From Acutalibacteraceae bacterium (GTDB lineage Bacteria > Bacillota > Clostridia > Oscillospirales > Acutalibacteraceae): DNA of 64,000 nt. The notes under the pieces are model-generated. The model worked only from the letters and a program-made list of their open reading frames with translations. It did no database searches and was not told where the DNA came from. This document shows positions 33,125 to 64,000 of this stretch, piece after piece. The stretch covers positions 2,065 to 66,064 of the forward strand of contig JAZRTC010000021.1 in assembly GCA_045651865.1 (NCBI GenBank), given 5' to 3'. The position numbers were made by a program, and so were the translations under genes. The first letter of the stretch is position 1. Each line of letters starts with the position of its first letter.

Positions 33125-33212
33125 AGTGTGTACCTCCGTAAACGGCGGCACACAAATCCTTCGAATTCATCTTAACATAACCACCGCCTTTCTGTCGAGT
33201 GGTAAATTTTTG

Positions 33213-35590: not shown

Positions 35591-35619
35591 TTGTTTTTCG
35601 TGAAAGAAAAATGTATAAT
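35591..35619 (+). promoter_or_regulatory. Sigma-70-type promoter of the TIR operon
   Basis: TTGTTT, 17-nt spacer, TATAAT. It lies 41 nt upstream of the ATG at 35660. Confidence 0.45.
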
Positions 35620-35659
35620 ATATATCAATAGTACAGTATGGAGTGGAGGTAAAGTGTTA

Positions 35660-38834: not shown

Positions 38835-39270
38835 TTTGTCATCCCCCCTTTTGTTATTCTTCGCAAAACCAAGATGTTGTGGATATGCTTGTTACCATTG
38901 CAATTAGCAATGGTATTAATTGTTGGATCGCATCATCGAGCATTGAAGCCGGTTCATATGCAAAACAAATTGTTCAAGGTGTTAAAGAAGCTCGTGCTTT
39001 TGTCGTGATTGTAAGCGAAAGCTCAATTTTATCTCCATACATAAAAACGAACTTGATATTGCTACGAGCAGAATCAAGGTCGGTTTGATAATTATGCCAT
39101 TCAAGATAGACGGCGCTGAACTCGATGATGAGTGCAGATACTATTTGGGCAGACAAGAATTCTTCATGGGTGAAAAGCCTCCTATTGATGAGCGAATTGC
39201 GCAGTTTGTCAATAGTATAAAAAAGTTTTGGAGTATTAGACAAAATAAGGACCACAATGAAAGGAGTTAG
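38831..39270 (+). pseudogene. TIR-only gene interrupted by a 1-nt frameshift in an A5 tract
   Basis: Track ORFs 38831..39088 and 39085..39270 join into one TIR (FCYSSQNQDVVDMLV..NGINCWIA...FVVIVSESSILSPYIK|NELDIATS..IIMPFKIDGAELDDE) if the A-run at 39043-39047 were A6. Confidence 0.7.
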
Positions 39271-39273
39271 TTT

Positions 39274-40650: not shown

Positions 40651-40947
40651 ATGAAAAACAGAGTAATTGTAACGAAGGCAGTCAAAGAAGTAAAGGAAAA
40701 CGATAGACTTGTTCAGAAGGAGTTCCTTGAATTTCATCTGAAAAATAAAGAAGGAACCTTTTGGCTATTTACGCAGCCGTTTTCAAAAGGCGTATACGAG
40801 TGGTTTAAGGATGGTCGTGCAGAGGGCGAAATTTTAAGTTTTGCGAAGTGGGATCGCAACAAGCGTCTTAACGATACGATTAACCGTATTCCTCGTGAAA
40901 TCCGCTATGTACAGAAGTATGTTATGGAGGTGGAACGTGCGGCTTAA
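40651..40947 (+). CDS. Hypothetical protein (98 aa)
   Basis: AAAGGAG RBS and no recognisable motif. Confidence 0.55.
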   Translation: MKNRVIVTKAVKEVKENDRLVQKEFLEFHLKNKEGTFWLFTQPFSKGVYEWFKDGRAEGEILSFAKWDRNKRLNDTINRIPREIRYVQKYVMEVERAA

Positions 40948-45494: not shown

Positions 45495-48400
45495 ATGGAT
45501 TCCAGAGCTTTTATGAGAAAAGGCGAAAAAATAACACTATGTGAAGAAATTTCAGGAAATAAAAAAACATTTTCAATTATATCTAAAGACGGGGCAGGTT
45601 CATCATCTGTATCCTATATTGCAACTTGTGGAAGAAAAACGGGGCGACTGAAGGAGTTTTATCCTTGCGATCACAACAATGGCGAATTATTCGCAATTAT
45701 CCGTAAAAAAGACAACCAACTTTTTTGTTCCAATCAAAACGAAGAGGCAACCAAAACTTACGCTGCTATGATGGATGAATACATAGAATCCTATCATATT
45801 CTTGAAGATGCAAAAAAAGAAGCTGAAAAAGGAAACAATTCGTTTAGTACATTTATTCCAAGTTTTGAGATTTTCAGAGGTTGTGACGAAAATGGCAATG
45901 CAGGTGGAAGTGCGTATATTTGGACTATTGATAATACCGGAGATTTTGAAACGTTCGATAAGTATTTAGAAAAGGTCCACAAACACCCTTCTCGCAACCC
46001 AGCCAAGGCTCTTTTTGTAATTCTTAAAACTTTATATAACTTAACAGAGTGCGTAAAAACACTGCATACAGCCGGATTGATTCATAGTGACATTAAACCT
46101 GAAAACTTTGGATTTTCAATCAGAGATGGACGTCATTTGACTGAACAGGTTCAACTTTTCGATGTAAATTCCATTTATTCTGTTTATACAAACTTCCCCA
46201 CCTTTACAGGGACTGCAGGATTTTGTGCACCGGAAGTATTCAAAGGGAAAATCACCAATCAGTCTGATTTGTACTCAATTGGTGCAGTATTGTTTAATGC
46301 AGTTGCATTAGACGATGATATTAAAGATAGTTTGTATTCAGATGAATTTTACGCAAATATTGATGAAATCGTTGCGAATTCTAAATTGCTTAACGCAAGT
46401 CCTATTACAGCAAGTGTAAGATTCCAGGCTAAAATATCCGGAATTCTAAAAAAGTGCTTAGCTAAAGAACTGAGAAAAAGAATTGACAATTGTGACGAAC
46501 TCAAAAAAGATTTGCAGAGTGCATGTGCGTTGCTTATTCCGGCCCAATATAACGATATTCTTGATCTTGGAAGCGAGCTAAAAATAATTGATAAAGAATT
46601 GGAACAATTTAATGAAGCTGATTCGACATTTGCTTTCCAAAGTTTGATTTTTAACCATCCTCTTTACGAAAACGCAGACGATACCATCAAAATTCTTATT
46701 GCGGGCTTTGGTGTATATGGACAGCAGTTCCTGGATATTTGTTTGCAGGCAGGACAAATCAAGGGAAAAAAATTAGAGATTGCAGTTATAACACAAGATA
46801 AGGTGGCTTACAAAAAAGAATATTTGGATCAACGACCTGCCCTTATCGATTTCTTCGAGATAGATGGTGAAGGAGACACAAGTAGTACTAATTATGGAAA
46901 AATCACCTTTATCACGCCAGAAGAAGTTTTTGATGATCCGGAAACATCTGCAAGGTTCGCAAACGGATTTAGTAGAGGCACCAGCAGAGCTGATTTGCAG
47001 TACAACAAGGCACTCGCTCAAGAATTAATGCTTACTAAATGTGAATCAAGCTATGTATTCGTAGCTTTAGGCGAAGATCAATTGAACTTATCAGTAGCTA
47101 AGGCTTGTGCTAAAGTGGTATCTAGCTTTGCTGAATTAAAATGTACGGTAGCATGTGTTTGTAATGACAATAAAAATCACAAAGGAATTTTAACAGTTAA
47201 TGTAACAGCTAAGGCAAGTGAAAACAAAAGCTACGAGGAGATTGAGCGAATGGCATTTAATGCCCACCTCTCTTGGAATAGCCCGTTAAAGTTAAACATC
47301 AATCTGAGAAAAGCTAAGCGCGAGTTTTCGGATAAATATAATCACGATGCATCAGTTGCGTGTGTTCTGGCAATAAAAAATTCTCTATATTCGTGCGGAA
47401 TTGCATTAGATGATTTGTCGGAAGAGTCGATCGCAAAAGCAGCGAGTGAATATAGTGGTTTTATCAAAAGCAACAAGGATATCTTTGCCGAATTAGTTTA
47501 TGTAGAGCACAAACGGTGGGTTGTTGATAAAATCACAAACGGTTGGACATTTAGAAGCAATCTTACCGACTGTTTGTATGGTCCTATCAACGATAAGAAG
47601 AAAAAGCAGCATCCTTGTATTGTGAAAAGCAAAGTTGATTTCAATTTGGAAAAGTATTATAAGAATGCCTCAACTGGTAAGTGGTATAAGTCCAAGTGGA
47701 ATGAACGTTGTGATGATGATGGATTACTAGATGAATTAGACACAATATCTATTAAACTTCATAGGTTGTTCTTTGAAGCCGCAAAGGAAGTAAAAAGCAC
47801 CTTTTCTCTTAATGGAGAAGAAGTCAATAGAATTCAGTGGTTAATCAATGAGCATAAAGATTCTGTAATTGCCTTTAATGAGTGGATGCTGTGTTTAAAA
47901 CGTATTTGGGATATGGATGAAGCTCAGGCAAAATTCTATGATGGATATAGAGATGCCTTTTTGGAAACGATCTCCTCACTTTCAAAGCCAGAGCGAGAAG
48001 ATGTCATTAGGTATGTGAAAATTATTGATTCCAAAGTCACTCCAATTATTTTCGCATATAGAATGAGAGATTATAAGGCATCCGATAAAGATTTAATAAA
48101 TGCAATTCCGTTTATACTCACCAATCGAGAAAACAGAAGAGTATTTATTCCTTTGATGAATGGTGACAATACAGAGAGATTCAATAATGTAGCCTCAGCG
48201 ACATTGATTAATCCGGATACGATTACATATGGTGTTTACCTGAGAACTCATGATAATACAAAAGAATTTCTTGAAATAACAAATCATATTCTATCTTATA
48301 TGGATAAAAAGGATATCAAATCCAAATTAAAGTTTGCTTTGATTTATAGTGATAACGATAAGAAGATTAAGCAATCTATTGCTGAATTGATTGAGAAGCT

Positions 48401-49700
48401 AAGAAAGATGGATCCGCGAATCAAACAAATTTTTAACCTTCCTGTGTTAAATGAGGCCGATATCGCAACTACACTGTCCTCTCAAATAGTCGCTGATGCA
48501 TATGAAAATAATTCAGCTTACTTGTCTGCATTATTGGTTGGAGCTGGATTTTTCGCAAATAAGCCCACGTATAGTTTTGACTCATTTGATAAAAAGTTTG
48601 TTGTCTCAAATGGTTGCGAATGGCTCAACTATATAAGAAGTGGTCAATTTATCACCATTCCGGATATGTTATCTTTTAAGAGCTCTACAGGTGTCATGGA
48701 AGCATTACCTGAGTATGCTGAATATAAAGAACTCTGGAAGCTTTATAAAGGTACTAGCTACGCTTGGAAAGATATGTGCAAAGTACTTGAGAAGTTTGCA
48801 GACAGTAATGATTTGATTTCTAGTTTTAATATTCAAACCGACTTCACTAATGCAAAGACATTGGAATTTGTAATTCCAAATGAGCTGAGAGATAGTTATA
48901 ACCACATAATTTCTTATCTTAGGGATATTGCTCTTGCAATCGGCGAATCGTCACGCGTGGAGTATAAATCAATCGAATCGTGCAAAGTAACGATTGTTGT
49001 TGGTCAAAACAACATTGATGCAGCCAAGAAACTGTTTGCAAATCCTTATATGCTTATGAACCGTAGAAACATATCGATACGAACAAAGCCTAAAAAGGCG
49101 GAGATATTACTGAATAGTCTCGTTGTTAATGAGCTGAAGATGGATGATTATCCTGAATATTCAGATAAAAAGAAAAAAATTGGAGAGATTTTCCTAACAC
49201 TTCAAAAAGAAGGATATATCTACAATTTAAGAAATGTGGATAATCAAGTATTTTCTTTTGTTTATTCCACGAGACAAGCAAAGCAGTTAATGACAAGTGC
49301 AGGTAGAATTTTAGAAATATATGTTTATCACAAACTCCAAGAGTCTGGCTTTGATGATGTGGTAAGTGGGTATGAAATCAATTGGGGAGATACAGATGTA
49401 AAATCAGAATTTGACTGCATTGTTACCTCTGGTTTCAAATGTGCAATGATAGAATGTAAAGCACAGGATAAAATTTCCCAAGATTACTACTACAAGCATT
49501 CTTGCTTAGCAAAGCAATTTGGCATTAATGCAATACCTGTCTTAATTGCGGATACTCATGAAAGAGAGGATTGGGATAATAGTACAAACGAAATGCAGCG
49601 CGAACGCGGAAAAATGATGGGCGTTGTTACAGTATACGATCGTGACGATATCAGTAATATTGATATGACGCTTAGACGAATATTAAACGGCAAATACTAA
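45495..49700 (+). CDS. 1401-aa fusion: Hanks-type Ser/Thr kinase, Rossmann-like region, RyR-like region, unknown middle, C-terminal PD-(D/E)xK (DUF1887/Card1-like) nuclease
   Basis: Kinase: GRLKEF Lys, catalytic loop HSDIKPEN (res 197-204), LFDV, GTAGFCAPE, SDLYSIGAVLF. Rossmann-like: KILIAGFGVYGQQ (res ~399-412). RyR-like: VYVEHKRWVVDKITNGWTF...KKQHPCIV (res ~668-710). Nuclease: LEIYVYHKL...SEFDCIV...MIECKAQ (D1307, E1320, K1322). Confidence 0.75.
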   Translation: MDSRAFMRKGEKITLCEEISGNKKTFSIISKDGAGSSSVSYIATCGRKTGRLKEFYPCDHNNGELFAIIRKKDNQLFCSNQNEEATKTYAAMMDEYIESYHILEDAKKEAEKGNNSFSTFIPSFEIFRGCDENGNAGGSAYIWTIDNTGDFETFDKYLEKVHKHPSRNPAKALFVILKTLYNLTECVKTLHTAGLIHSDIKPENFGFSIRDGRHLTEQVQLFDVNSIYSVYTNFPTFTGTAGFCAPEVFKGKITNQSDLYSIGAVLFNAVALDDDIKDSLYSDEFYANIDEIVANSKLLNASPITASVRFQAKISGILKKCLAKELRKRIDNCDELKKDLQSACALLIPAQYNDILDLGSELKIIDKELEQFNEADSTFAFQSLIFNHPLYENADDTIKILIAGFGVYGQQFLDICLQAGQIKGKKLEIAVITQDKVAYKKEYLDQRPALIDFFEIDGEGDTSSTNYGKITFITPEEVFDDPETSARFANGFSRGTSRADLQYNKALAQELMLTKCESSYVFVALGEDQLNLSVAKACAKVVSSFAELKCTVACVCNDNKNHKGILTVNVTAKASENKSYEEIERMAFNAHLSWNSPLKLNINLRKAKREFSDKYNHDASVACVLAIKNSLYSCGIALDDLSEESIAKAASEYSGFIKSNKDIFAELVYVEHKRWVVDKITNGWTFRSNLTDCLYGPINDKKKKQHPCIVKSKVDFNLEKYYKNASTGKWYKSKWNERCDDDGLLDELDTISIKLHRLFFEAAKEVKSTFSLNGEEVNRIQWLINEHKDSVIAFNEWMLCLKRIWDMDEAQAKFYDGYRDAFLETISSLSKPEREDVIRYVKIIDSKVTPIIFAYRMRDYKASDKDLINAIPFILTNRENRRVFIPLMNGDNTERFNNVASATLINPDTITYGVYLRTHDNTKEFLEITNHILSYMDKKDIKSKLKFALIYSDNDKKIKQSIAELIEKLRKMDPRIKQIFNLPVLNEADIATTLSSQIVADAYENNSAYLSALLVGAGFFANKPTYSFDSFDKKFVVSNGCEWLNYIRSGQFITIPDMLSFKSSTGVMEALPEYAEYKELWKLYKGTSYAWKDMCKVLEKFADSNDLISSFNIQTDFTNAKTLEFVIPNELRDSYNHIISYLRDIALAIGESSRVEYKSIESCKVTIVVGQNNIDAAKKLFANPYMLMNRRNISIRTKPKKAEILLNSLVVNELKMDDYPEYSDKKKKIGEIFLTLQKEGYIYNLRNVDNQVFSFVYSTRQAKQLMTSAGRILEIYVYHKLQESGFDDVVSGYEINWGDTDVKSEFDCIVTSGFKCAMIECKAQDKISQDYYYKHSCLAKQFGINAIPVLIADTHEREDWDNSTNEMQRERGKMMGVVTVYDRDDISNIDMTLRRILNGKY

Positions 49701-49778: not shown

Positions 49779-50063
49779 ATGTATACACCAAAACCGATTG
49801 ATACAAAAAACATTGCACTTCCGGAAGAACTTCTCGCTCTGACTGAAAAAATCGCTGAGAATGTTCATGATGTATGGGCACAGGGCCGAATTTCTGAGGG
49901 TTGGACGTATGGCGAAACTAAGGATCCCGAGAAGAAAACCACACCGCTCCTTGTCCCATATGAAGAATTGGCCGACAGTGAGAAAGATTATGACCGTAAT
50001 ACTGCGTTAGAAACACTGAAGCTGATTGTTAAACTGGGTTATTCAATCAAAAAAGTAGAATAA
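49779..50063 (+). CDS. Stand-alone RyR (ryanodine-receptor repeat) domain protein
   Basis: LPEELLALTEKIAENVHDVWAQGRISEGWTYGETKDPEKKTTPLLVPYEELADSEKDYDRNTALETLKLIVKLGYSI fits the bacterial RyR-domain pattern. Confidence 0.75.
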   Translation: MYTPKPIDTKNIALPEELLALTEKIAENVHDVWAQGRISEGWTYGETKDPEKKTTPLLVPYEELADSEKDYDRNTALETLKLIVKLGYSIKKVE

Positions 50064-54262: not shown

Positions 54263-54523
54263 AGTTTGCTTATGAAAGTAGTATCATTCACAAAAAACGC
54301 AAAAATTTTATAAGGAAAAGCAAGTATTTAGCCCCCTCCCTCCTTAGGCTTTTTAAAAGTATGATATAACAATAAACAAGGTTACAGAAATATGGTCGTT
54401 ATATTTGATGTTTCAGTAACCGGCATAAATATTAAGACACAACGGAGGACACTTCTATGAGAAAATTGAAAGTTGGTCTTATTTCAGCAAACCCGACAGT
54501 ACAGACGAAAGGAGTTTATAAAA

Positions 54524-55285
54524 ATGAAGAATAAAACATTAAAAGACATTCGTGTTTCTAGTCTGAAAAAAGGAAAAGTTAAGGGGGTTGGCTTTTTTGA
54601 AAGCATTCCTTTAAAGATCGCTGGTCGTATTGACGGTCGCAGAGGACTCCCTCGTGAGAACGATAACGGTCAATGGGTATCCCCTCATATTGAGAAAGAG
54701 GTGCGTTCTTACGATGAGTTTTCTTCTCGTATGTGGGGTCAGCTCCAGATTGAAGAAGAGGCTGCGTTTGCTCGTCTCGGCGAACTTATGGATTCTGTAG
54801 TTCATATCAAATCACAGTTGGACACTGCCAAATCAGAATTGGACGAAGCTTCTGCCGGCGAAGGTATGGTTAACAATTCTCGTAAGCACGGAGAAGGCAA
54901 ACTCACTGATGCGCAGGTTGCAGCTCGCAGAGCGAATGAACATACCAAAAGGCTTTCGCCGATTAGAAGTCGAGTATCTTCTCTTCAGGCAAAGCTTACT
55001 TCTGAAATTGACGAATTTTCTGCAGTGCGCGCAAAAATCGTTGAGGATAACAATTCAACGAGAATGGTTTGCAATCGTGTAAGAGACCATCTATATCAGC
55101 GCCTTGCAGTTTACTGGAACTCTGCTTTACGTAAGCATACAGAACGCAGTAAAATGCCGGCGGTTCCTTGTGTAGATGTTATCTTCAATTCAGAAGAAGT
55201 TTATATGAAACCTCATATCGAATTGATGCAAAAAGCCGAACTGTTGAGCGAGACAATTAAAAAAGAGTCCGAGGAGGTGGCATAA
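54524..55285 (+). CDS. Coiled-coil protein, unknown function
   Basis: Start at M18 after AAAGGAG. 253 aa. Confidence 0.6.
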   Translation: MKNKTLKDIRVSSLKKGKVKGVGFFESIPLKIAGRIDGRRGLPRENDNGQWVSPHIEKEVRSYDEFSSRMWGQLQIEEEAAFARLGELMDSVVHIKSQLDTAKSELDEASAGEGMVNNSRKHGEGKLTDAQVAARRANEHTKRLSPIRSRVSSLQAKLTSEIDEFSAVRAKIVEDNNSTRMVCNRVRDHLYQRLAVYWNSALRKHTERSKMPAVPCVDVIFNSEEVYMKPHIELMQKAELLSETIKKESEEVA

Positions 55286-55728
55286 TGTTCGGAAAGAAAA
55301 AACAACAGGCATTATTCAATTCAGCTGATGATAGTAGATCAGAGGCATATTTCTGCCTTCGCAGTAGTCATGGTTATGGCGATGAAGCATTTAGAACGGT
55401 AGAATATCGCCTTTATTCAAAGCTTGAAGAGGGTGAAATGATTCCTCGTCTAGACGAACATTTGAATAAATTGTTTGCAGGCGAAGTTGATGATGCGAAT
55501 GGTGATATGTTGGATGCCATCATTTTTGGCGCAGCCAGAGAGGCACTACCGGATCTTAGTCGTCAGCATTATGACCATATGGATATGTTGAGAAGATTTA
55601 TCGTTAAGCGGCAAGCTGATCGTGGTGACATCCAAAGAATAAAGGAAGACCGTGAGAGGGAACGAGATAATATACAAGGGGAATATGATAATATTTGTCA
55701 TTTACTCTCCAAATGTGAGGAGGTCTAA
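55285..55728 (+). CDS. Hypothetical protein (147 aa)
   Basis: Its start overlaps the preceding stop (ATAATG), suggesting translational coupling. Confidence 0.6.
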   Translation: MFGKKKQQALFNSADDSRSEAYFCLRSSHGYGDEAFRTVEYRLYSKLEEGEMIPRLDEHLNKLFAGEVDDANGDMLDAIIFGAAREALPDLSRQHYDHMDMLRRFIVKRQADRGDIQRIKEDRERERDNIQGEYDNICHLLSKCEEV

Positions 55729-55730
55729 TT

Positions 55731-56678
55731 ATGAATCGTAACAATGTTCTTGTAACGAAAAACCGCACTGGTGAATTCATCTATCCGGGACTTAATTCCC
55801 ATATGAGTAAGAAATACAAAGCGGACAATCCGTTGGATAATGCTATAGTGCCATACATTATTATGATTATCTGTGCCGCTATTGATTTAACTGTTTTCTA
55901 TAGCTTATTTAAAATGATATCTTACGATAGCCAGTGGATGCTGATTGTTCAGGTTGCCGGAATGCTGTTCGCTTTCGATATGGTTCCAATTTATTTGGGT
56001 ATTCAGCTCCGCCGAATGAAACAAGGGTTAACTAAAGAAAAGATGGTTCTTTATATGGCTCTGGGTGTTTGCGCTGTCGCATTCATCATAAATGTCATTC
56101 TAAATATTATGACGATTGAACTTATGAACCCTGACCTTTCTTCAGCTACCACTAACTACTTTGGAACAGCAGTTGAGCAAACGGCTACAGAAGGTATCGA
56201 TCCTTCTACGATTGCATTGACCATTTTCCGTATCGGCTGTCCGGTACTTACTTCTGTAGGCTCCTTCTTTATCTCTTACTTGACCTATAATCCGCTTAAA
56301 ACAAGAAAGCGTAATGCGGAAGAGGTCCTCGCAGAGAAGAATGATGAGGTTCGCCGTCTAGAAGCGGTTTTGCATGAGTATGATGCAGATAGTGAATTTG
56401 CTGAAAATCTTCGTGCTGACGACGAAGGAAAATATGAAGAGATGAAAAAGATGCACCGTGCCCTAGTAATTAACTATTGCGAGTACGTAAGGCAACGTCT
56501 TAAAGAGCATCTTGCCGATCCGACAGCCACCAATGCGCTATCCGAGGAGACTTGTATTGCCATCTTGGAACGCCTTGATCGTGAGCTTGCAGCTATAGAT
56601 AATTGTGGTGTTCCTCCAATGTTTAACGGGAATAATCCCAAAGATAAAATGCTTATCTCAAACAATGTAGCAGCTTAA
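55731..56678 (+). CDS. Four-TM membrane protein with cytoplasmic coiled-coil tail
   Basis: TM segments IVPYIIMIICAAIDLTVFYSLF, LIVQVAGMLFAFDMVPIYLGI, VLYMALGVCAVAFIINVILNI and IALTIFRIGCPVLTSVGSFFISYL. Confidence 0.65.
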   Translation: MNRNNVLVTKNRTGEFIYPGLNSHMSKKYKADNPLDNAIVPYIIMIICAAIDLTVFYSLFKMISYDSQWMLIVQVAGMLFAFDMVPIYLGIQLRRMKQGLTKEKMVLYMALGVCAVAFIINVILNIMTIELMNPDLSSATTNYFGTAVEQTATEGIDPSTIALTIFRIGCPVLTSVGSFFISYLTYNPLKTRKRNAEEVLAEKNDEVRRLEAVLHEYDADSEFAENLRADDEGKYEEMKKMHRALVINYCEYVRQRLKEHLADPTATNALSEETCIAILERLDRELAAIDNCGVPPMFNGNNPKDKMLISNNVAA

Positions 56679-56693
56679 AAGGAGAAAAGAATT

Positions 56694-57932
56694 ATGAAGA
56701 AAACGATTGCTTTGATTTTAACGATTGTGCTTGCTCTTGGCCTTGTAGGAAGTCTTACAGGTTGCTCCTCGAATAATGAGGCATCAACCGAAAAAGTTGC
56801 TGTATGCTATGTTATCGCCAACACTGCAAACTCTAAAGGCCTTAATTTGCAGAGCCCGTTGGTTCAGGATACCATTTATTCAACGATCCTTAATTACGGA
56901 TATATTTCTGTTGTAAATGCCGATGGTTCTCCTGAAGTGGTGCTTGCAAGTAGTTTTGACATTGATGAAAAGTATAAAAGTGCCTCTAAAGATAAACTGG
57001 CAATGGACGCTCGTTCAAAAGCAACTAATCTAATTAGTGGTATGCAGACCGTGATTGCTGATGACCCTGAAATTGATTATCTTGAGGCTTTGCGTCTTGC
57101 AGTTCGAAGTTTGGCTTCCTTAGAAGGTTACGATTCCAAACAAATCATTGTTCTCGGAACAGGACTTAGTACAACCGGTGTTCTCGATTTTAAAAACAAT
57201 CTTATTTCTGCCGAACCTGATGTCATCGTTGAACTGCTTAACGAGAAATCCGAAATTCCGAACTTCTCTGATATCACTGTTTACTGGCAGCAGCTTGGTG
57301 ATGTTGCGGCTCCGCAGGAAACTTTGACAAGTGCACAAAAAAATAAGCTCCAGAAAATCTATGGTTCGCTTGTCGAAACCGGCGGAGGCACTTTCGTATA
57401 CAATGATATTATGGCTAATCCCGTTGACGAGAGCGTAGAATACCCTTCCGTTACACCCGTCGATCTTCCCGATGATACTCCTATCGCTTTTGAAGCAGAT
57501 GATCTTGATGCAGAAGATGATAAGGCTTTTGAAGAGCCTCAGGTGCTTAGTGAAAGCCAGGTTGAGTTTATCGGAGACCAAGCAAACTATTTGTATCCTG
57601 ACAAAGCGGTAGAAAACATTCGTCCTATTGCGGAATATCTGCTTAAACACGATGATGTAAATATTGTGCTCATTGGTTCCACGGCTGGCGATAGCACAAA
57701 TGCTTCTACATTGAAGTTGTCACAAGAACGTGCTGATGCAGTCAAGAAAACCTTGATTGATCTCGGTGTGAATGCAGATAGAATCACGACCATTGGCATG
57801 GGAGCAAGTGATCCTTGGCATATCCCTAATGCCGGCTATGACGGTGCAGCTGCTTCTGCAAATAGAAAGGTAGTTCTTCTTGATGCACGTAGCGCAACAG
57901 CTCAAACTATTCTTGAACAAGTGAATTCTTAA
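56694..57932 (+). CDS. Lipoprotein with vWA-like region and C-terminal OmpA-family peptidoglycan-binding domain
   Basis: Lipobox LTGC. C-terminus IVLIGSTAGDS...LSQERADAVKKTLIDLGVNADRITTIGMGASDP...NRKVVLL. Confidence 0.7.
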   Translation: MKKTIALILTIVLALGLVGSLTGCSSNNEASTEKVAVCYVIANTANSKGLNLQSPLVQDTIYSTILNYGYISVVNADGSPEVVLASSFDIDEKYKSASKDKLAMDARSKATNLISGMQTVIADDPEIDYLEALRLAVRSLASLEGYDSKQIIVLGTGLSTTGVLDFKNNLISAEPDVIVELLNEKSEIPNFSDITVYWQQLGDVAAPQETLTSAQKNKLQKIYGSLVETGGGTFVYNDIMANPVDESVEYPSVTPVDLPDDTPIAFEADDLDAEDDKAFEEPQVLSESQVEFIGDQANYLYPDKAVENIRPIAEYLLKHDDVNIVLIGSTAGDSTNASTLKLSQERADAVKKTLIDLGVNADRITTIGMGASDPWHIPNAGYDGAAASANRKVVLLDARSATAQTILEQVNS

Positions 57933-57968
57933 TTAAACAAATACTTACGATATAAGGGGTGATAAATC

Positions 57969-58217
57969 ATGTTCCGTGCCGTCCTGTTAATCTTATATTT
58001 GCTAATTTTAATACCATCGTTAACTCATTTGATTCGATATCGTGATGTTCCTGGTTCAAGACGCTGGAGTGTTGGATTGGGCATTGCTGGTGTATTGTTG
58101 GTACCAACGTTTGCTGCTTTTTTGTGCGAACTCCTCACCTCTATTTTTAGCATAGGTTTGTTTATTCTCATTTTTTTCGGTGGCATAGGCATGATTTTCA
58201 AATCGTTGTTTCGATAG
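57969..58217 (+). CDS. Small polytopic membrane protein (82 aa)
   Basis: Three hydrophobic segments. Confidence 0.55.
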   Translation: MFRAVLLILYLLILIPSLTHLIRYRDVPGSRRWSVGLGIAGVLLVPTFAAFLCELLTSIFSIGLFILIFFGGIGMIFKSLFR

Positions 58218-58226
58218 GAGATACTT

Positions 58227-58529
58227 ATGGATACATTAAACGTACTGTCTTATGGAGGCATCATCACCTTAATTGTTCTTTTAATTATCTTTGAGGTAAA
58301 AGACAGGCAAGGGGCCAGTTACAATAATAACAGTGGATATATCTATTACACTTATAACAATATTGCGGTAAGAATTCGTCATATAGCTGCATCTAGATAC
58401 AAGGTGTATGTTAACGATTTTTGTCCTGTTCAAACAAAAAAAGATCGCTATGGTACATATTTTAATTTGAGAGCACGCTCCGCCTCAGAAGCTGAATATC
58501 AGATTGATGAGTTGTTCAGAAACTGTTAA
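58227..58529 (+). CDS. Small single-TM protein (100 aa)
   Basis: N-terminal TM GGIITLIVLLIIFEV. Confidence 0.55.
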   Translation: MDTLNVLSYGGIITLIVLLIIFEVKDRQGASYNNNSGYIYYTYNNIAVRIRHIAASRYKVYVNDFCPVQTKKDRYGTYFNLRARSASEAEYQIDELFRNC

Positions 58530-58541
58530 GAGGTGTTTGGT

Positions 58542-59207
58542 ATGAGTAAAGACCATATACCGAGTGACTTTGGGCGCCCAAGTGGATATAAATCCGATTT
58601 GGAAATCGCTGAAACAGGCTCAAAAGTTAAGTCTATAAACACATCTTTCGGAAGTAAAAACCACAATGCATATATTATGCGGACAGACAAAACTCATGAA
58701 CATTTCTACTATAATCCGCAAACACAAAAGAGTGGATGGCACGGACACAATTATGAAACACGTAATAATCATCCACAACTCAACATAGAACACGTTGATA
58801 AAAAGGGAGAAACAACAATGGAAAAATCCAATTCATTTATTGAAAGCTTAAAGGTAGACCAAGCAACGATTGATCGTTGTAATGAGGTCTCGAAGAACGC
58901 GGCACAAAAAGCTAATACACCGACATCGCGAAGTCAGAACGTGGATGGTGGCCGAGAACGTGGTGATAGTGGTCCAGGTAGTCTTGGTAGAGAGTCCGGT
59001 TATAAAAGTGGTGAAAGCAACTCCGGACATGAGGGTAACAGTGCTGCGCATTCTTCAAGTAGCAACGGAGCATCGGGACATAGTTCCAGTGGGGAGGGTT
59101 CTTCCGGTGGCCACGGGAACGGCGGTGAAGGTTCCGGAGGACAGGGCTCCGGTGGTCAAGGATCTGGCGGAGGTCATGGATCAGGAGGTTCAGGAGGAGG
59201 TCACTGA
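58542..59207 (+). CDS. Protein with Gly/Ser/His-rich low-complexity C-terminus
   Basis: ATG at 58542 after AAGAGGTG. Tail SGHEGNSAAHSSSSNGASGHSSSGEGSSGGHGNGGEGSGGQGSGGQGSGGGHGSGGSGGGH. Confidence 0.6.
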   Translation: MSKDHIPSDFGRPSGYKSDLEIAETGSKVKSINTSFGSKNHNAYIMRTDKTHEHFYYNPQTQKSGWHGHNYETRNNHPQLNIEHVDKKGETTMEKSNSFIESLKVDQATIDRCNEVSKNAAQKANTPTSRSQNVDGGRERGDSGPGSLGRESGYKSGESNSGHEGNSAAHSSSSNGASGHSSSGEGSSGGHGNGGEGSGGQGSGGQGSGGGHGSGGSGGGH

Positions 59208-59208
59208 T

Positions 59209-60498
59209 ATGATCAAAACAACACTAGAGGGATTGTCTATTCTTCCTAATCCTCCGGCAATGGAAGGAATGGCTATTGCTCCTATTGTAAGACTGAAAAA
59301 CGGTCTTACACTTCACGATGGGGTTTTTGAAGCTCCTACTTTGCTACTTGGTTCAGTCGGTTCCGGTAAGACGTACCTCTTGAATGAAATTATGGATCCT
59401 ATTCTTCATCATGCAGAAGCGAATAATGAGAATGTGATCATTTTTGCAGCCAAACCGGATGTCTTAGAGAAGAAAAGGCCTAACGATATAGTAATCTCTC
59501 TAGATGGCAAAGAACCTAATGGATGTTGGAATCTATTCAAGGAACTTAGTGCCAGTAGCAATCCTGAACTAACGGCAAGAGATATCGCAAAATCGCTGAC
59601 TCAGGATCAACGCTCGGAAGCGCAACCATTCTTCGAAAATGCAGCTAACGATCTTCTTTTTAATTCGATTATGTGTATGTATGAAGATGGAATGGAGAAA
59701 GGTGTCGTATATACAAACTGGCATCTTGTTGATTTTTTAAATAAGACAGCAGTCAATAGCGGAGAGTTGACTTGGAAAGAGCTGGCTAAGTTGCGCCCAA
59801 AACGTTTTGCGCATATCAATGATTATTTAGGTGACAACCTGGGCCAAGGATACGGTATTGTATCGGAATTAAGAACTTTGGTTCACGATTGCTTCTGGGG
59901 CTCATTTTGCTCTGATAATGGCACATTTTCGGCAATTGAGTCGCTGAAAACCGGCGGAAAACGTATTTTTCTATACTACGATTATGCAAACGCAAGTGAG
60001 GCAAGCATTAAGATTTTCCGTACAATTCTCAACTTACTTATTAAGCATTCGGTCGATAAACAAAACGGTCGAAGAACGTGGTTCTTCTTGGACGAGGCAA
60101 GTCTATTACCGAAGACTTGTATCGCAGATGCAATGTCACTTGGGCGAGCGCAGGGCTTCAGATTATTTATGTGCCTGCAGTCTGCACAACTTATGACGAG
60201 ACATTACAAGGAAGACGAGGCGAAGACCCTATTGAGTTTGTTCCCTAATATTATCTGTATGAAAGTACAGGATAGCCTGAGTCGTTCGATTTTGGCAGAT
60301 AGGTACGGAGATTGTTTGTGTACATATAGTTTCAATGCTCCCATGCAAAAAATTGCTCAGCACGCAGAGCATAGACCAGTTGTAGCAGACTTTGATTTTT
60401 CTCAACTTCAGAGGAAAGGAGATGCAATCTGTAGTATACCTAACCTAAGTTCGTCACCGTTCTTTTATAGAGGCTATAGAAAGGAGCTGGATGTGTAA
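59209..60498 (+). CDS. Soluble VirD4/TraG/TrwB-like (T4CP-like) P-loop ATPase
   Basis: Start at M114 of the track ORF, 1 nt after the preceding stop. Walker A LLLGSVGSGKTY, Walker B RRTWFFLDEASLL. No N-terminal TM. Confidence 0.65.
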   Translation: MIKTTLEGLSILPNPPAMEGMAIAPIVRLKNGLTLHDGVFEAPTLLLGSVGSGKTYLLNEIMDPILHHAEANNENVIIFAAKPDVLEKKRPNDIVISLDGKEPNGCWNLFKELSASSNPELTARDIAKSLTQDQRSEAQPFFENAANDLLFNSIMCMYEDGMEKGVVYTNWHLVDFLNKTAVNSGELTWKELAKLRPKRFAHINDYLGDNLGQGYGIVSELRTLVHDCFWGSFCSDNGTFSAIESLKTGGKRIFLYYDYANASEASIKIFRTILNLLIKHSVDKQNGRRTWFFLDEASLLPKTCIADAMSLGRAQGFRLFMCLQSAQLMTRHYKEDEAKTLLSLFPNIICMKVQDSLSRSILADRYGDCLCTYSFNAPMQKIAQHAEHRPVVADFDFSQLQRKGDAICSIPNLSSSPFFYRGYRKELDV

Positions 60499-61364
60499 TG
60501 AACAACCGATATAGACCCACAGACATTCGGGCACTTAGCGGGCCGGTTACTTCAAGGAATTCACGCAATGCCAGCAATCACCCTGCAACTTATTTGGGTA
60601 ACTGTACCCCTTCTCAGATTTTCAACCACATTCGACTTGGTAATAATTACACGGCTTGTGTTGTTGGTAATCCAGCACGAGGTATAGGAATCGCAAAAGC
60701 GTTAATCCGCCAATCAGGAAAACCTTTTTTATTCATTGGTCCAAAGAAAGACGAGAACTCACAGTTTGCCGCTCTGCAACCTGATTGGACAATGAATTCA
60801 GTGCAATCGACCTTCCCTACAGGAAATGGTGCAGTCTTTCTTTCGAGGCCAACAGCTGCGTACTTAGAACTTTGTGAATTCTTTGAAGAATGGTGCCAGG
60901 AATATTTTGTGGTTTTACATTTGAGTGGAGGTTTTCAAATCGGACCGGAGCTGCTTAATTTGTTAAGCGGAGCGGAGCAATGCTTAATATTCAGTGATTC
61001 CGTACCGTCAAGTCTTCGCAGCAATGAAACCCGTACACTTACTCCAAAAGAATTTTTCACTCAAATGAGCCACCTATTCGTGTTTTCTGCTGGGGTTGAA
61101 ACAAGAGACTTAATTGAGATTCTTCCTACATACCAGTATGAAAAAGTATCGAATTCAATGAACTTCAATCATTTCAAAAGTCGTTCAATTTTTCATCCTT
61201 TTCGTTCACATGCCGGAAACGGTATGTCGTGGGGTCAAACAAGAACTATGGAGTATAAAAAGAGTTTGTTTGAGATGGACGAATTAAAAAGGATTTTCGA
61301 TGACGGAACATCGCTTCTGTATGATGCAAAGGCAAATGCGGTTTTTCTTGCACACATCATATAA
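60498..61364 (+). CDS. Hypothetical protein with degenerate P-loop-like segment
   Basis: VVGNPARGIGIAKAL lacks the Walker Lys. Its start overlaps the preceding stop (GTAATG). Confidence 0.5.
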   Translation: MNNRYRPTDIRALSGPVTSRNSRNASNHPATYLGNCTPSQIFNHIRLGNNYTACVVGNPARGIGIAKALIRQSGKPFLFIGPKKDENSQFAALQPDWTMNSVQSTFPTGNGAVFLSRPTAAYLELCEFFEEWCQEYFVVLHLSGGFQIGPELLNLLSGAEQCLIFSDSVPSSLRSNETRTLTPKEFFTQMSHLFVFSAGVETRDLIEILPTYQYEKVSNSMNFNHFKSRSIFHPFRSHAGNGMSWGQTRTMEYKKSLFEMDELKRIFDDGTSLLYDAKANAVFLAHII

Positions 61365-61412
61365 CACAACGATAATTTTATAAACACATAATAAACGGAG
61401 GATCTCCCTTAT

Positions 61413-61991
61413 ATGAATACAATTGTTAAGAGTAGCCATGGAATCACACTAGTTCCGGTAACAAGCAAATTGCTTGCGGAGCGTAAAATTTTTATTGAAG
61501 ACGAAATCACGCTGGTATCAGCATGCGACACCGTTAGAGCCCTTATGCTTCTTGTGAAAGAAGATCCTAACAAGCCGATTGATATTTATATTAATTCGAC
61601 TGGTGGACGAGTTGATGCGGGCTTGATGATTTATGATACATTAAAAGGCATGAAGACGGAAGTCAATTTGCACTGCATTGGAATGGCTGCATCTATGGCA
61701 GCTGTTATTCTTGCCGGAGGAAAAAAGGGTCATCGCTTTATTTTGCCGCACAGTAAAACCATGATACATGAGCCGTTAATTTCATGTGGCGTTGGAGGTA
61801 GTGCAACAACGATTAAACATACAGCTGAGTCGATTTTGGAAACAAAACAACTTACAGTGGAGTTGCTTGCGAAAGATACAGGAAGAACAATCGAAGAGAT
61901 AGAACAAGCCATTGCGTTTGATAATTACATGAACGCGAAGGAATCTATCGCTTTTGGCCTTTGTGATTATATAGAAGAAGCGATTGTTTAA
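61413..61991 (+). CDS. ClpP-family serine protease homologue
   Basis: IDIYINSTGGRVDAGLMIYD, GMAASMAAVILAGG (Ser), TMIHEPL (His), AFDNYMNAKESIAFGLCD (Asp). The triad appears intact. Confidence 0.8.
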   Translation: MNTIVKSSHGITLVPVTSKLLAERKIFIEDEITLVSACDTVRALMLLVKEDPNKPIDIYINSTGGRVDAGLMIYDTLKGMKTEVNLHCIGMAASMAAVILAGGKKGHRFILPHSKTMIHEPLISCGVGGSATTIKHTAESILETKQLTVELLAKDTGRTIEEIEQAIAFDNYMNAKESIAFGLCDYIEEAIV

Positions 61992-62005
61992 AGGAGGAAG
62001 CTGCT

Positions 62006-63304
62006 ATGGATAAAGTTATTCTTGCTAAAAATGTTGTGCTTGAAGGTGGACTTGGGACAAGCAGGCCGAACGATAATCAAATTGTGTTCGGAGGGACCGG
62101 AAGTGGAAAATCTATGAGTATTGAGTTGCCGACATTGTGCCATACACGAAAAAGCAGTTTCTTCGGTACTTTCGCTAAACGAAGTGTGGTTAAAAAAGCT
62201 GCGCCTTATTTTCAGGCTCTTGGTTATAAAACCCATGTATGGAATATTACCGATCCTGCTGATGGTGATATGCTTCCTGACCCGCTTTTATATGTTGCAT
62301 CCGACGATGATGTACAAGAACTTGCTCGCCAAGTAGCACGGGGGAATCCGGAATACGATCGAGCTTCAAAATTTGATCCTTATTGGCGCGAAGCGAGTGA
62401 GTCGTTAATGACAGGATTGATTTATTATGTGCTTATGACCGAAGATCAGCCCAGTATGAAAAAAGTGATTGATCTTTTCTATAAGCTTCAGATTAAAGAA
62501 GATGGAAAAGGGATCAGCACTTCGCTCGATAGCCAATTTGATTGGCTGAAGCGGAAAGCACCTGAGTCGATCGCAACAAGAAAACTTTGCTCTTTCGCTC
62601 AATTACCGTATGCTACGGCCGGCTGTGTACGAGATGATTTGGAAAAAGCCATTCAAAACATGTTTCCGGTATCCGTTCAGGAGGCAATGGGTGCGAAAGC
62701 TACAGTTAATTTTGAGGCATTTGCGACAGATCTTACCGCTATCTTTATTGTCACCAGTCCGGTTAGAACGGCACCATATGCATTTGCCAATCTCTTATTC
62801 TCTATTGCAATTCGGCAATTGATGGAATTTGCCGAAAAGCAAGATAACAATCGCCTTCCCAGAGATGTAAAATTGTTCTTTGATGATTTCAGTTGTGGAT
62901 TTCCGGTCCTTAATTTCGAAAAGACTATTTCTACATTTCGTGCGGCAGGCATCAGTGCGATGATGCTTTGTCAATCGCTTGATCAACTTGATGCTACATA
63001 TGGACCGTATAATAGTACGGTGATTCTCGATAATTGTTCTACTCTTGTGTATCTACCGGGAGGAATGAACAAAAAAACATGTTCTCTTATTAGTGAGATG
63101 GTGAATCTTCCGCTGGAGGATGTGATGTTTATGGAAATGGGAAAAGTGATTGTGTTTCAATCCGGGAAAAAACCTATTATTGCATCGCGCTATGAGACGC
63201 TTTCCGACCCCGCGTATCGCAAAATGATGAATATGGATGAACAGAAATCTTCGGAAGACAATGAAGATCGAAAATCATCGGCAACCTTGAAAGTAACCCG
63301 TTAA
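62006..63304 (+). CDS. Soluble TraG/VirD4-like (T4CP-like) P-loop ATPase
   Basis: Walker A VFGGTGSGKSMS, DPYWREASESL, Walker B-like KLFFDDFS, MLCQSLDQLDATYG. No TM. Confidence 0.7.
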   Translation: MDKVILAKNVVLEGGLGTSRPNDNQIVFGGTGSGKSMSIELPTLCHTRKSSFFGTFAKRSVVKKAAPYFQALGYKTHVWNITDPADGDMLPDPLLYVASDDDVQELARQVARGNPEYDRASKFDPYWREASESLMTGLIYYVLMTEDQPSMKKVIDLFYKLQIKEDGKGISTSLDSQFDWLKRKAPESIATRKLCSFAQLPYATAGCVRDDLEKAIQNMFPVSVQEAMGAKATVNFEAFATDLTAIFIVTSPVRTAPYAFANLLFSIAIRQLMEFAEKQDNNRLPRDVKLFFDDFSCGFPVLNFEKTISTFRAAGISAMMLCQSLDQLDATYGPYNSTVILDNCSTLVYLPGGMNKKTCSLISEMVNLPLEDVMFMEMGKVIVFQSGKKPIIASRYETLSDPAYRKMMNMDEQKSSEDNEDRKSSATLKVTR

Positions 63305-63316
63305 AGGAGGAGAAAT

Positions 63317-63505
63317 ATGAAGAAAACTCCGCATCAACGGTTTGTCGAAAAGATAAAGAGGTCGGTTGGTACATATAAGACATCGAATTGCCGTCTAGCG
63401 TCTAAAAAAGAAGGAGGTGAGGTGGATGGGTTAGATGAAGATTTGTTGCGCGAATTAGAGGTACGATTTGAGGAGATTTTTGGGTCAAACTCAGATAATG
63501 ATTGA
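63317..63505 (+). CDS. Small acidic protein (62 aa)
   Basis: GGAGGAG RBS. Confidence 0.45.
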   Translation: MKKTPHQRFVEKIKRSVGTYKTSNCRLASKKEGGEVDGLDEDLLRELEVRFEEIFGSNSDND

Positions 63506-63567
63506 AGGGAGAACGCCCCGATCCGATTTAACGGGTCGGGCAGATTCTCTTTTGAAAGGACTTGTGT

Positions 63568-64000
63568 ATGATGAAAAGGTGTATATTAGCGGTATTGGCT
63601 TGTATTTTGATTACGGCACTTTCTGTTCCTGCAGCGGCGGCTACGGCTGATATAACACAATTAGGCGCTTGTGATGAGCAAAGTGGAGAGATTGAGCAGC
63701 AGAATGCTGTAACGGACGATGCAGCTGTATATGAGGGGGAGTGCCTTATAAAAGCAGATCCGTCGTTGATCGGTGAGGAATACACGGTTTGCGAAGGAAC
63801 ACGCTCGATTAAAGCGGAAGCATTTGAAGACTGCGTGAAGTTAAAGTGCATAGTGATCCCGGATACAGTGGAACATATCGGGAGGGATGCGTTTTCTGAA
63901 ACAGCATTATATCAAGATGAGGATAACTGGGAAGACGGGATGTTGATCGTTGAGGATGAGTATCTTCTCAAAGTGAAAGAGGACATCACGGAATGTCATA
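63568..64000 (+). CDS. Secreted BspA-type leucine-rich-repeat protein (3' end outside window)
   Basis: GAAAGGA RBS, a signal peptide (MMKRCILAVLACILITALSVPAAAA), and a first LRR_5-like unit (AFEDCVKLKCIVIPDTVEHIGRDAFSET). The frame stays open to the window end. Confidence 0.55.
   Translation, partial: MMKRCILAVLACILITALSVPAAAATADITQLGACDEQSGEIEQQNAVTDDAAVYEGECLIKADPSLIGEEYTVCEGTRSIKAEAFEDCVKLKCIVIPDTVEHIGRDAFSETALYQDEDNWEDGMLIVEDEYLLKVKEDITECH

Follow-up and report, generated by a model that had tools for sequence, protein, structure and literature searches.

Positions 54524-63505 (forward strand) of a 64,000-nucleotide stretch of DNA from an Acutalibacteraceae bacterium (contig JAZRTC010000021.1; we refer to the whole stretch as the window) hold one copy of a recurrent, non-conjugative supermodule of gut Clostridia, which is found on variable islands and is built from three separable cassettes. 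The 12 genes of the block (g01 to g12) encode envelope proteins, a toxin-like protein, two soluble ATPases related to type IV coupling proteins (T4CPs), a ClpP protease paralogue and a short acidic protein. No described system matches the module. Our favored interpretation, which we regard as having a probability of roughly 40%, is that T4CP-like ATPases traffic polymorphic toxin-like cargo through a complex in the envelope, alongside a ClpP cassette that is proteolytic.

A first-pass annotation of this DNA listed 11 genes as one module. All 11 are present as described and are co-directional, and the domain assignments were reproduced. The module is real, but it is a composite of three cassettes and comprises 12 genes when g12 is included. 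The g07 toxin-like family, the g12 tail motif and the cassette structure had gone unnoticed. Junctions within the block overlap or are shorter than 50 nucleotides (spacing from -8 to +48), and a Shine-Dalgarno-like sequence lies upstream of each gene. From about 34 kb to the end of the window, the G+C content is 33-43%, versus 52-57% upstream. A hairpin followed by a U-run, at approximately 63502-63554 (+), has a predicted folding energy of -27.2 kcal/mol (z = -3.5 versus shuffled sequences); it is terminator-like and is predicted to close the operon after g12. A scan for promoter and terminator consensus sequences performed no better on the window than on shuffles, and an Rfam search gave zero matches. 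An open reading frame (ORF) at 63570-64000, which encodes a signal peptide and BspA-type leucine-rich repeats (LRRs), begins after the hairpin and runs off the window.

We compared the block with 48 related loci (prefixed L) from genomes and metagenomes, in which homologues were tabulated by tblastn. The gene order is, as judged from these alignments, far beyond chance. Non-redundant lineages that share it number at least six, with amino-acid identities of 55-97%. Identities are 55-77% in the loci with the complete order (L003, L025/26 and L043-48) and in L011, where most of it is present. At least one relative belongs to a named genus (L003, Absicoccus), and the family is abundant in gut metagenomes of humans, ruminants and rabbits. 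In relatives the module ends at g12, after which come an LRR protein, a serine recombinase or chromosomal genes. The earlier suggestion that the rest of a transfer apparatus might lie beyond 64 kb finds no support in this boundary, as seen in relatives, or in the terminator-like hairpin that follows g12 in the window.

The cassettes become apparent when loci that carry only part of the block are considered. The first cassette (g01-g04) is an envelope cassette that encodes two cytoplasmic helical proteins, a protein with four transmembrane segments and a lipoprotein with vWA-like and OmpA-type domains. The second, which is swappable, consists in the window of g05, g06, g07, ATPase1 (g08) and g09, and the third of ClpP, ATPase2 (g11) and the acidic-tailed g12. 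In L039-42, g01-g04 and the last three genes are the same and the middle cassette is replaced by genes for a 250-residue Endonuclea_NS_2 protein, a 444-residue T4CP-like ATPase, a 384-residue P-loop-like protein and a membrane Peptidase_M48; this replacement cassette also occurs in L007 and L021. The logic of the middle cassette is constant: a toxin-like protein, whose head is N-terminal and whose C-terminal tail is of low complexity and rich in Gly/Ser or Gly/Asp, is followed by a soluble T4CP-like ATPase and then by a P-loop-like partner. The loci L034-36 are 89.5% identical to the window at the nucleotide level from position 54375 to the exact stop codon of g09, and diverge thereafter; they carry g01-g09 without ClpP, ATPase2 or g12. 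(In L034, a different LRR_5 gene directly follows g09.) Conversely, ClpP and ATPase2 occur alone in about 18 other contexts, and most loci in which ClpP precedes ATPase2 are without g01-g09. In L021, g01-g04 are inverted and displaced. The ATPase-ClpP-ATPase triad that had been proposed as a unit therefore does not hold together: ATPase1 and g09 occur without ClpP and ATPase2 in L034-36, and ClpP and ATPase2 occur without ATPase1 in most loci. The flanks of the module are extremely variable.

The gene that we consider most informative is g07 (58533-59207, +), a modular toxin-like protein recognized by its tail composition and by comparison of homologues. It consists of a His-rich head of about 80-95 residues, a conserved central helix and a disordered tail rich in Gly, Ser and His; in the last 94 residues, Gly makes up 37%, Ser 26% and His 6%. 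Among homologues, the center and tail are constant and the head is swapped. A GH-E HNH nuclease (E=4e-23) occupies the head position in L003, in L043-48 and, judged from the head sequence, in L011; in L003 and L043-48 an Imm33 gene lies immediately upstream of the GH-E-headed gene. GH-E has been described as a polymorphic-toxin nuclease, and Imm33 as an immunity protein to toxins of the HNH fold (Zhang et al. 2012, PMC3482391). The protein of the alternative cassette has an Endonuclea_NS_2 head (E=7e-8). A similar layout, with an enzymatic head at the N-terminus and a tail rich in Gly, Asp and Ser, is seen in the Endonuclea_NS_2 proteins and in an HExxH protein of L024, each of which adjoins its own, different T4CP-like ATPase.

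Of the features of polymorphic toxin systems (Zhang et al. 2012), a variable toxin part recombined onto a constant region is found in the g07 family, with the polarity reversed compared to classical systems. A recognized toxin domain with an adjoining immunity gene is present in relatives (GH-E with Imm33); in the window, the head has no Pfam match and no immunity gene adjoins it. The head found in the window belongs to a small family with 23 representatives in 1.8 billion proteins. It is always N-terminal, and elsewhere it is joined to Endonuclea_NS_2 (protein P0394) or to other C-terminal parts. We rejected the idea that this head is itself a GH-E domain, there being no detectable similarity, and we considered and dropped the possibility of a decayed GH-E whose catalytic His had become Tyr. 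Long multi-stretch matches of the head (zf-MYND, 3HCDH and others) were rejected as compositional artefacts. Markers of known trafficking routes, e.g., LXG/WXG and Rhs, were absent from the Pfam results, and g07-type proteins are without a signal peptide. On the strength of these sequence comparisons, we conclude that g07 is a member of a domain-shuffled, toxin-like family.

ATPase1 (59209-60498, +) is a 429-residue soluble T4CP-like ATPase of the VirD4/TraG/TrwB superfamily. It matches the Pfam families TrwB_AAD_bind (E=5.8e-22; 78.5 bits, cut-off 20.5), TraG-D_C (1e-9) and T4SS-DNA_transf (7.5e-8), and has intact Walker A (GSVGSGKT) and Walker B (FFLDE) motifs. Its start appears better placed at the ATG at 59209 than at about 59200, because the resulting 429 residues are the length found in relatives. 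ATPase2 (62006-63304, +; 432 residues) is also soluble and matches T4SS-DNA_transf (E=1e-26; 94.3 bits, cut-off 20.1) and TraG-D_C (8e-13). Walker A (GGTGxGKS) and Walker B (FDDF) are invariant in its alignment, and it has 218 relatives. Thus, in both proteins the nucleotide-binding and all-alpha domains that define T4CPs score above the curated Pfam thresholds and the Walker motifs are invariant in the alignments, and the possibility that the ATPases belong outside the T4CP families, which the first-pass annotation had raised, is not borne out. Both nonetheless fall under every NCBIfam cut-off for conjugative T4CPs. Against conju_CD1115 (cut-off 250 bits), ATPase2 scores 174.9 bits and ATPase1 36.4 bits, and scores for all other families are far under their cut-offs. 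Among annotated proteins, those nearest to ATPase2 are conjugative T4CPs of the CD1115 family; its identity to plasmid T4CPs is 24-28%, and that of the module ATPases overall 24-29%. Hydropathy plots reveal no hydrophobic segment in ATPase1 or ATPase2 that could serve as an N-terminal transmembrane anchor.

We rejected a recent duplication as the origin of the two ATPases, given that BLAST detects no similarity between them; homology is apparent only at the profile level (hhalign probability 96%, E=1.8e-9, 16% identity). At least four diverged subfamilies of soluble T4CPs were found, in Oscillospiraceae, Lachnospiraceae, Erysipelotrichaceae and one Negativicute, without a type IV secretion system (T4SS). 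These subfamilies always adjoin toxin-like cargo or ClpP. A further soluble T4CP-like ATPase, 29% identical to ATPase1, is encoded at 289614-290936 of the Paenibacillus amylolyticus plasmid pY5S7-1 (L049). This plasmid is a non-mobilizable megaplasmid, and the ATPase gene has hypothetical genes and one for a metallophosphatase around it; no T4SS gene is annotated within 9 kb.

The gene following ATPase1 is g09 (60498-61364, +), whose start overlaps the ATPase1 stop. It encodes a 288-residue protein, and its AlphaFold2 (AF2) model (pLDDT 83) has a RecA/ASCE fold. Its top Foldseek matches are the FtsK-HerA-type packaging ATPase B204 of Sulfolobus turreted icosahedral virus (STIV; E=4e-4), Cagbeta and GspE/PilB. 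We classify g09 as a degenerate P-loop protein because the family consensus is missing both the Walker A Lys and the Walker B acid. Nearly all of its 77 relatives are exactly 288 residues long. Profile comparison of g09 with ATPase1 gave no similarity, and phmmer against PDB sequences found nothing; only the fold search was informative.

In the third cassette, ClpP (61413-61991, +) is a 192-residue paralogue with a Ser/His/Asp triad and a divergent N-terminus. It matches CLP_protease with E=3e-54 (184 bits), and solved ClpP structures match at E=5e-42. The triad is kept in 20 of 21 aligned module ClpPs, with Bacillus subtilis ClpP as the alignment reference. The protein scores below all NCBIfam cut-offs for ClpP equivalogs (e.g., 162 bits versus 308.6 for TIGR00493), and in the alignment its N-terminal gating region is divergent. 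The module encodes no partner AAA+ unfoldase, and an AAA_2 protein adjoins ClpP only in L006 and L011. No IGF-like ClpP-docking tripeptide was seen when the ATPase2 consensus was read by eye. The constant neighbor is instead ATPase2: ClpP lies directly upstream of it in 26 of 28 non-redundant loci, with a gap of 10-30 nucleotides, and the pairing persists down to 30% ATPase identity (in a Phascolarctobacterium). The identities of the two proteins to those of the window co-vary (rho=0.66, 25 loci).

The last gene, g12 (63317-63505, +), encodes a 62-residue acidic protein with the C-terminal motif ELEvRFEEIFGsnSDND. A six-frame translation of the window contains this motif a single time, and it follows ATPase2 in eight lineages (L001, L003, L011, L021, L025, L031, L039 and L043). 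In L034, which has neither ATPase2 nor g12, this motif is fused to a 535-residue T4CP-like protein as its C-terminus, and we therefore propose that g12 works with the ATPase. In most full modules a conserved protein of 222-249 residues, which we call C7, precedes ClpP (L025 8731-9408, L039 15639-16307, L043 15515-16186). C7 ends in KTDLFGTEG plus acidic residues, like the g12 tail, and has no relative in Pfam, PHROG or PDB sequences; speculatively, it may be YbjN- or chaperone-like. It is missing from the window, where a 48-nucleotide gap (61365-61412) lies at its place.

C-terminal tails elsewhere in the module and island may also concern ClpP. The endings of g01 proteins are -VA, -AA or -GA, and every member of a small family encoded upstream has -AA as its ending, compared to a background of 10 in 386 ORFs. 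Ala-Ala and Val-Ala ends conserved across lineages are NNVAA (g03, 56664-56678), EEVA (g01, 55271-55285) and VERAA (40933-40947). Such endings resemble ssrA-type ClpX degrons, and could act as such.

The envelope cassette begins with g01 (54524-55285, +), an ORF preceded by a Shine-Dalgarno sequence and encoding a predicted cytoplasmic, helical, coiled-coil-like protein of 253 residues. It has a weak Pfam match to ERM_helical and ends in -EEVA. Identity is 61-98% in L003, L025, L033, L034, L039 and L043, and 35% in L021; a profile search against PDB sequences found no relative. The start of g02 (55285-55728, +; 147 residues, ending in -CEEV) overlaps the g01 stop. It matches no family in a Pfam search, and keeps its synteny with g01, g03 and g04 wherever the envelope cassette is present. 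Hydropathy marks g03 (55731-56678, +; 315 residues) as a membrane protein: it has four hydrophobic segments and a C-terminal tail that is charged and helical. Its C-terminus is -NNVAA, and of nine aligned homologues, all six longest-tailed (close) ones end in Ala-Ala. No relative of g03 was found in Pfam, or in PDB by a profile search of its sequences.

The last member of this cassette, g04 (56694-57932, +), is a 412-residue lipoprotein in which an extracytoplasmic, vWA-like domain of alpha/beta type is combined with a peptidoglycan-binding domain of the OmpA type. Its signal peptide has the lipobox LTGC with an invariant Cys24. The OmpA domain is matched by Pfam (E=6.5e-12), and in the AF2 model (pLDDT 71) this C-terminal domain resembles the folds of OmpA, Pal and MotB (Foldseek E=8e-8). 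In the same model, the N-terminal domain is an alpha/beta domain whose top Foldseek match is the vWA domain of Ku80 (E=1e-5). Its metal ion-dependent adhesion site (MIDAS) motif is non-canonical (ANTANS), and the vWA-like assignment, which depends on the model, is moderately supported. At least 120 full-length metagenome relatives of g04 share at least 63% identity with it, and a T4CP-like ATPase cassette lies within 10 kb of every g04 relative examined, contig ends excepted. Hydropathy also indicates that g05 (57969-58217, +; 82 residues) is a small polytopic membrane protein and that g06 (58227-58529, +; 100 residues) has a single N-terminal transmembrane segment. Identities of g05 are 65-97% in L003, L011, L025, L033, L034 and L043, and a g05-like C-terminal ending is seen in L024. 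Relatives conserve g06 at 55-94% identity.

Coupling proteins are regarded as parts of T4SSs. As queries for conjugation genes, we used proteins of one canonical Clostridium plasmid, pCDC3875 (C. botulinum), together with Pfam. In the 825 kb made up of the window and the 48 loci, tblastn found no match to the relaxase, MobC, DUF3801, VirB6-like (CD1112), PrgI, VirB4-like (CD1110) or SLT proteins, with the caveat that the absence of relaxase and MobC is based on this single reference set and Pfam, and that very divergent relaxases could escape. In the same 825 kb, the plasmid's VirD4 query gave 45 matches. The VirB4 families AAA_10 and CagE were absent from the annotated neighborhoods, and the precomputed Pfam neighborhoods held no T4SS family other than T4CP-like ATPases. 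In L028-30, the ClpP-ATPase2 pair is 2 kb from glutamate-synthase genes. The first-pass annotation had doubted that this was a canonical conjugation module; the lack of any VirB4, VirB6, relaxase or hydrolase homologue in the window and 48 loci agrees with that view, as does the absence, in every relative, of a downstream gene set for mating-pair formation. Our searches thus indicate that the block is not a conjugation module. The first-pass annotation's alternative proposal of a non-conjugative ATPase-protease or conflict system pointed in the right direction.

We also considered a phage origin, with ClpP as a prohead protease and a packaging ATPase. This idea was rejected: ATPase2 has no relatives in IMG/VR, and matches in phage records are only 22-25% identical. 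ClpP scores 88.8 bits against the head-maturation model, for which the cut-off is 120. PHROGs yielded nothing specific for the module. Matches in PADLOC-DB v2.0 were only generic and weak, i.e., mad8 on the ATPase cores (3e-14 and 6e-4) and ZorB (7e-5), the latter confined to the OmpA domain of g04. In the literature on ClpP with VirD4 or TraG in defence or toxin contexts, we found nothing relevant except a passing remark on the Menshen system (PMC12065111).

Under the trafficking interpretation, which is built on sequences and predicted structures, the proteins could work together as follows. True coupling proteins recognize C-terminal signals. By analogy, ATPase1, which probably forms a ring with the pseudo-ATPase g09 or is regulated by it, would recognize the constant tail of the adjoining cargo, unfold the cargo and strip off any bound immunity protein. 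The cargo would then pass to a membrane conduit of g03, g05 and g06, which g04 would fix to the peptidoglycan. Small nuclease-type toxins would in this way be exported without VirB4, to serve in antagonism between bacteria. ClpP, ATPase2 and g12 would form an autonomous proteolytic unit, probably clearing or regulating components. In the window's copy, the head of the cargo would be an uncharacterized His-rich domain, with no immunity gene adjoining. A more specific version of this scheme seems unlikely to us as a whole, namely that the module is an unrecognized VirB4-less export machine in which a ring derived from soluble T4CPs feeds nuclease toxins through a membrane and wall complex, and in which ClpP uses an ATPase2 hexamer, with the g12 tail as adaptor, rather than an AAA+ unfoldase.

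It is important to emphasize that several observations weigh against trafficking. The g07 head in the window has no Pfam match and no adjoining immunity gene. The module has no known channel-forming or wall-degrading component, any export signal in the cargo is putative, and the entry of a nuclease of about 250 residues into a target cell lacks explanation. The position of Imm33 upstream of the toxin gene is that of antitoxins in toxin-antitoxin pairs, and a cytoplasmic ClpP fits intracellular regulation better than export. ClpP and ATPase2 are commonly found without a toxin-like gene nearby, and defence-type genes (TIR/ThsB-like, PD-T4-6-like kinase, WYL-WCX, PP2C and JAB-E1) are abundant in the vicinity.

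Several of these observations are what would be expected of the main rival explanation, an intracellular abortive-infection system directed against phages or plasmids, which we consider possible, if somewhat doubtful. In such a system, g04 and the membrane proteins would sense envelope perturbation or incoming DNA, and the soluble ATPases would engage the invading DNA or protein-DNA complex. The nuclease would be restrained by an immunity protein or by sequestration until triggered ClpP, fed by ATPase2 or by host ClpX, removed the inhibitor and freed the nuclease to destroy DNA. The dedicated ClpP, the module proteins ending in ssrA-like -AA and the immunity gene placed before the toxin gene would all be accommodated, and defence systems typically swap effectors while the scaffold stays constant. 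Moreover, T4SS-DNA_transf domains have been noted as sensors in a few Menshen NsnA proteins (PMC12065111), and the islands of the window and its relatives encode, among them, three TIR proteins (ThsB-like), a PD-T4-6-like kinase with PD-(D/E)xK, and PP2C/Metallophos, RyR, WYL-WCX, JAB-ThiF and patatin proteins. However, co-location with defence genes is non-specific, because toxin loci also occupy variable islands, and the PADLOC-DB matches did not go beyond the weak, generic ones given above. GH-E, Endonuclea_NS_2 and Imm33 are, furthermore, families defined from secreted polymorphic toxins (PMC3482391), and the constant, low-complexity tail and the dedicated T4CP-like ATPase co-vary in a way that resembles the logic of a substrate and its receptor.

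Alternatively, the T4CP-like ATPases might be part of an accessory module that recruits cargo, docking onto the T4SS channel of an ICE (integrative and conjugative element) encoded elsewhere and thereby delivering proteins such as nucleases or anti-restriction factors into recipient cells. The kinship of ATPase2 with CD1115-family conjugative T4CPs is in keeping with this idea. In L001, the ClpP-ATPase2 pair adjoins ICE-type genes (ArdA, LPD28, DNA methylases and DUF3846/3849), and large serine recombinases of the conjugative transposon type flank the island in the window (31439-33151), L025 and L039. We nevertheless regard it as quite improbable: there is no VirB4, VirB6 or relaxase within 10 kb in the 48 loci or in the 30 kb of island that the window covers, some copies lie among chromosomal housekeeping genes, and the identity to conjugative T4CPs is only 24-29%, below NCBIfam cut-offs. 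The module also has membrane and wall proteins of its own, for which a trans-acting adaptor would have no need. Finally, there might be no single system, but independent envelope, toxin and ClpP operons packed into a recombination hot spot and not cooperating. Each cassette does occur somewhere alone (L034 is without the ClpP cassette, many loci have only ClpP-ATPase2, and g01-g04 are displaced in L021), and the variability of the flanks could be read in the same way. We give little credence to this explanation, given that at least six lineages keep the same cassette order after divergence to 55-75% identity. The tight junctions with one terminator-like end after g12, the presence of a T4CP-like cassette within 10 kb of examined g04 relatives, and the fused g12 motif in the 535-residue T4CP-like protein of L034 also speak for cooperation.

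Comparison with known systems helps to place the trafficking interpretation. In the X-T4SS of Xanthomonas and Stenotrophomonas, VirD4 recognizes the XVIPCD at the C-terminus of the toxin. The module shares with it toxic enzymatic heads on a constant C-terminal region beside a VirD4-family ATPase, and cognate immunity genes. However, it lacks a VirB1-B11 channel, its ATPases are soluble and its tail is low-complexity and Gly/Ser-rich rather than an XVIPCD; in addition, its hosts are monoderm and it includes ClpP. The likeness to the type VIIb secretion system (T7SSb) and its LXG toxins (PMC3482391) lies in the combination, within a single locus of a monoderm, of nuclease toxins and immunity genes with a few small membrane proteins and an ATPase of the wider FtsK-related group. 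Here, too, there are differences: the module's Pfam matches do not include EssC (a membrane-anchored FtsK/SpoIIIE protein), WXG100, EssB, YukD or LXG, and its toxin domain is N-terminal, not C-terminal. Although the CD1115-type coupling protein of C. botulinum pCDC3875 has the same Pfam families and Walker motifs as the module ATPases, it has 623 residues with two hydrophobic segments in the first 100, in contrast to 429-432 residues and no transmembrane segment. Its neighbors (DUF3801, VirB6-like, PrgI, VirB4-like, SLT and relaxase) are all absent beside the module ATPases.

Nuclease bacteriocins such as colicin E9 and pyocin S have an HNH DNase, a tightly linked immunity gene and a Gly/Ser-rich disordered region. 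In the module, however, the domain order is reversed, receptor-binding and lysis genes are lacking, and the toxin gene goes together with genes for ATPases and a membrane cassette. Zorya (ZorA/ZorB) likewise has a polytopic membrane protein with a cytoplasmic helical tail and an OmpA-type anchor upstream of cytoplasmic effectors, but g03 has no MotA/ExbB match and g04 is a vWA-like lipoprotein, not a transmembrane plug protein. Lastly, a triad-bearing ClpP and neighbors with -AA ends like ssrA-type degrons recall ClpXP/ClpCP and protease-controlled toxin-antitoxin systems. However, no AAA+ unfoldase adjoins the window's ClpP, the constant neighbor of which is a T4CP-like ATPase. To our knowledge, no partnership of T4CP-like ATPases with ClpP has been described. 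In its working, the module is thus closest to X-T4SS toxin delivery or T7SSb export, without the defining features of either, and it also lacks those of conjugative T4SSs, PADLOC defence systems and phage modules. It can be loosely filed among systems of the polymorphic-toxin type, as one whose T4CP-based apparatus is undescribed and which has a dedicated ClpP.

If the module exports toxins, it would constitute a new route of inter-bacterial toxin trafficking in the gut microbiota, alongside T7SSb. If instead it acts in defence, we would be dealing with a new immune system of several genes, equipped with a sensor in the envelope and a protease of its own. In either case, the near-obligate pairing of ClpP with a T4CP-like ATPase raises the question of whether a ring of the FtsK-HerA class can feed ClpP; should the pair be a true unfoldase and protease, it would represent a new class of ATP-dependent protease. 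A demonstration of export or of a T4CP-ClpP protease would be categorically new.

The module's neighborhoods are variable, mobile conflict islands. In the window, at the edge of the low-G+C island lies the large serine recombinase (31439-33151, -; Resolvase, Recombinase and Zn_ribbon_recom), followed by DUF6870 and a RepA_N fragment. Similar serine recombinases lie just downstream of g12 in L025 and L039. Three consecutive TIR-domain genes occupy 35561-40437, and all give weak ThsB-like PADLOC matches. Two are paralogues (555 and 537 residues, with an 8-nucleotide overlap of their genes) with an N-terminal TIR and C-terminal Sel1 repeats, and the third protein (387 residues) has a C-terminal TIR. 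A 1401-residue protein (45495-49700) combines a PD-T4-6-like Ser/Thr kinase domain (residues ~175-345) with a C-terminal PD-(D/E)xK domain of the CARF-associated type, and its close relatives (>90% identity) accompany the module in L033. At 49779-50063, a stand-alone RyR-domain protein of 94 residues is near-identical to proteins in L006 and L033, and in L031 an RyR protein is found beside ClpP-ATPase2. The upstream island also encodes a metallophosphatase and a Tudor-domain protein.

Around the relatives, we found TIR, PP2C, WYL-WCX and patatin genes, JAB-ThiF and AAA_2 cassettes, and serine recombinases. One recurrent cassette adjoins ClpP-ATPase2 (L006 4949-9321, L003 11868-15000, L011 12221-16590 and L043 19237-21239). 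It encodes small proteins with an ICW motif, an E1-like fusion of JAB and ThiF, and an ATPase of the AAA_2 (Clp/Cdc48) type. It is absent from the 64-kb window, and in L006 it lies directly upstream of ClpP. From its domains, this cassette resembles a module for ubiquitin-like conjugation that is linked to a protease. Another recurrent feature is proteins with the metallopeptidase motif HExxH, encoded either just downstream of g12 or in variant cassettes (L039 18782-19633, L031 11488-12636 and L024 8208-9245), and those of L039 and L031 have N-terminal membrane segments.

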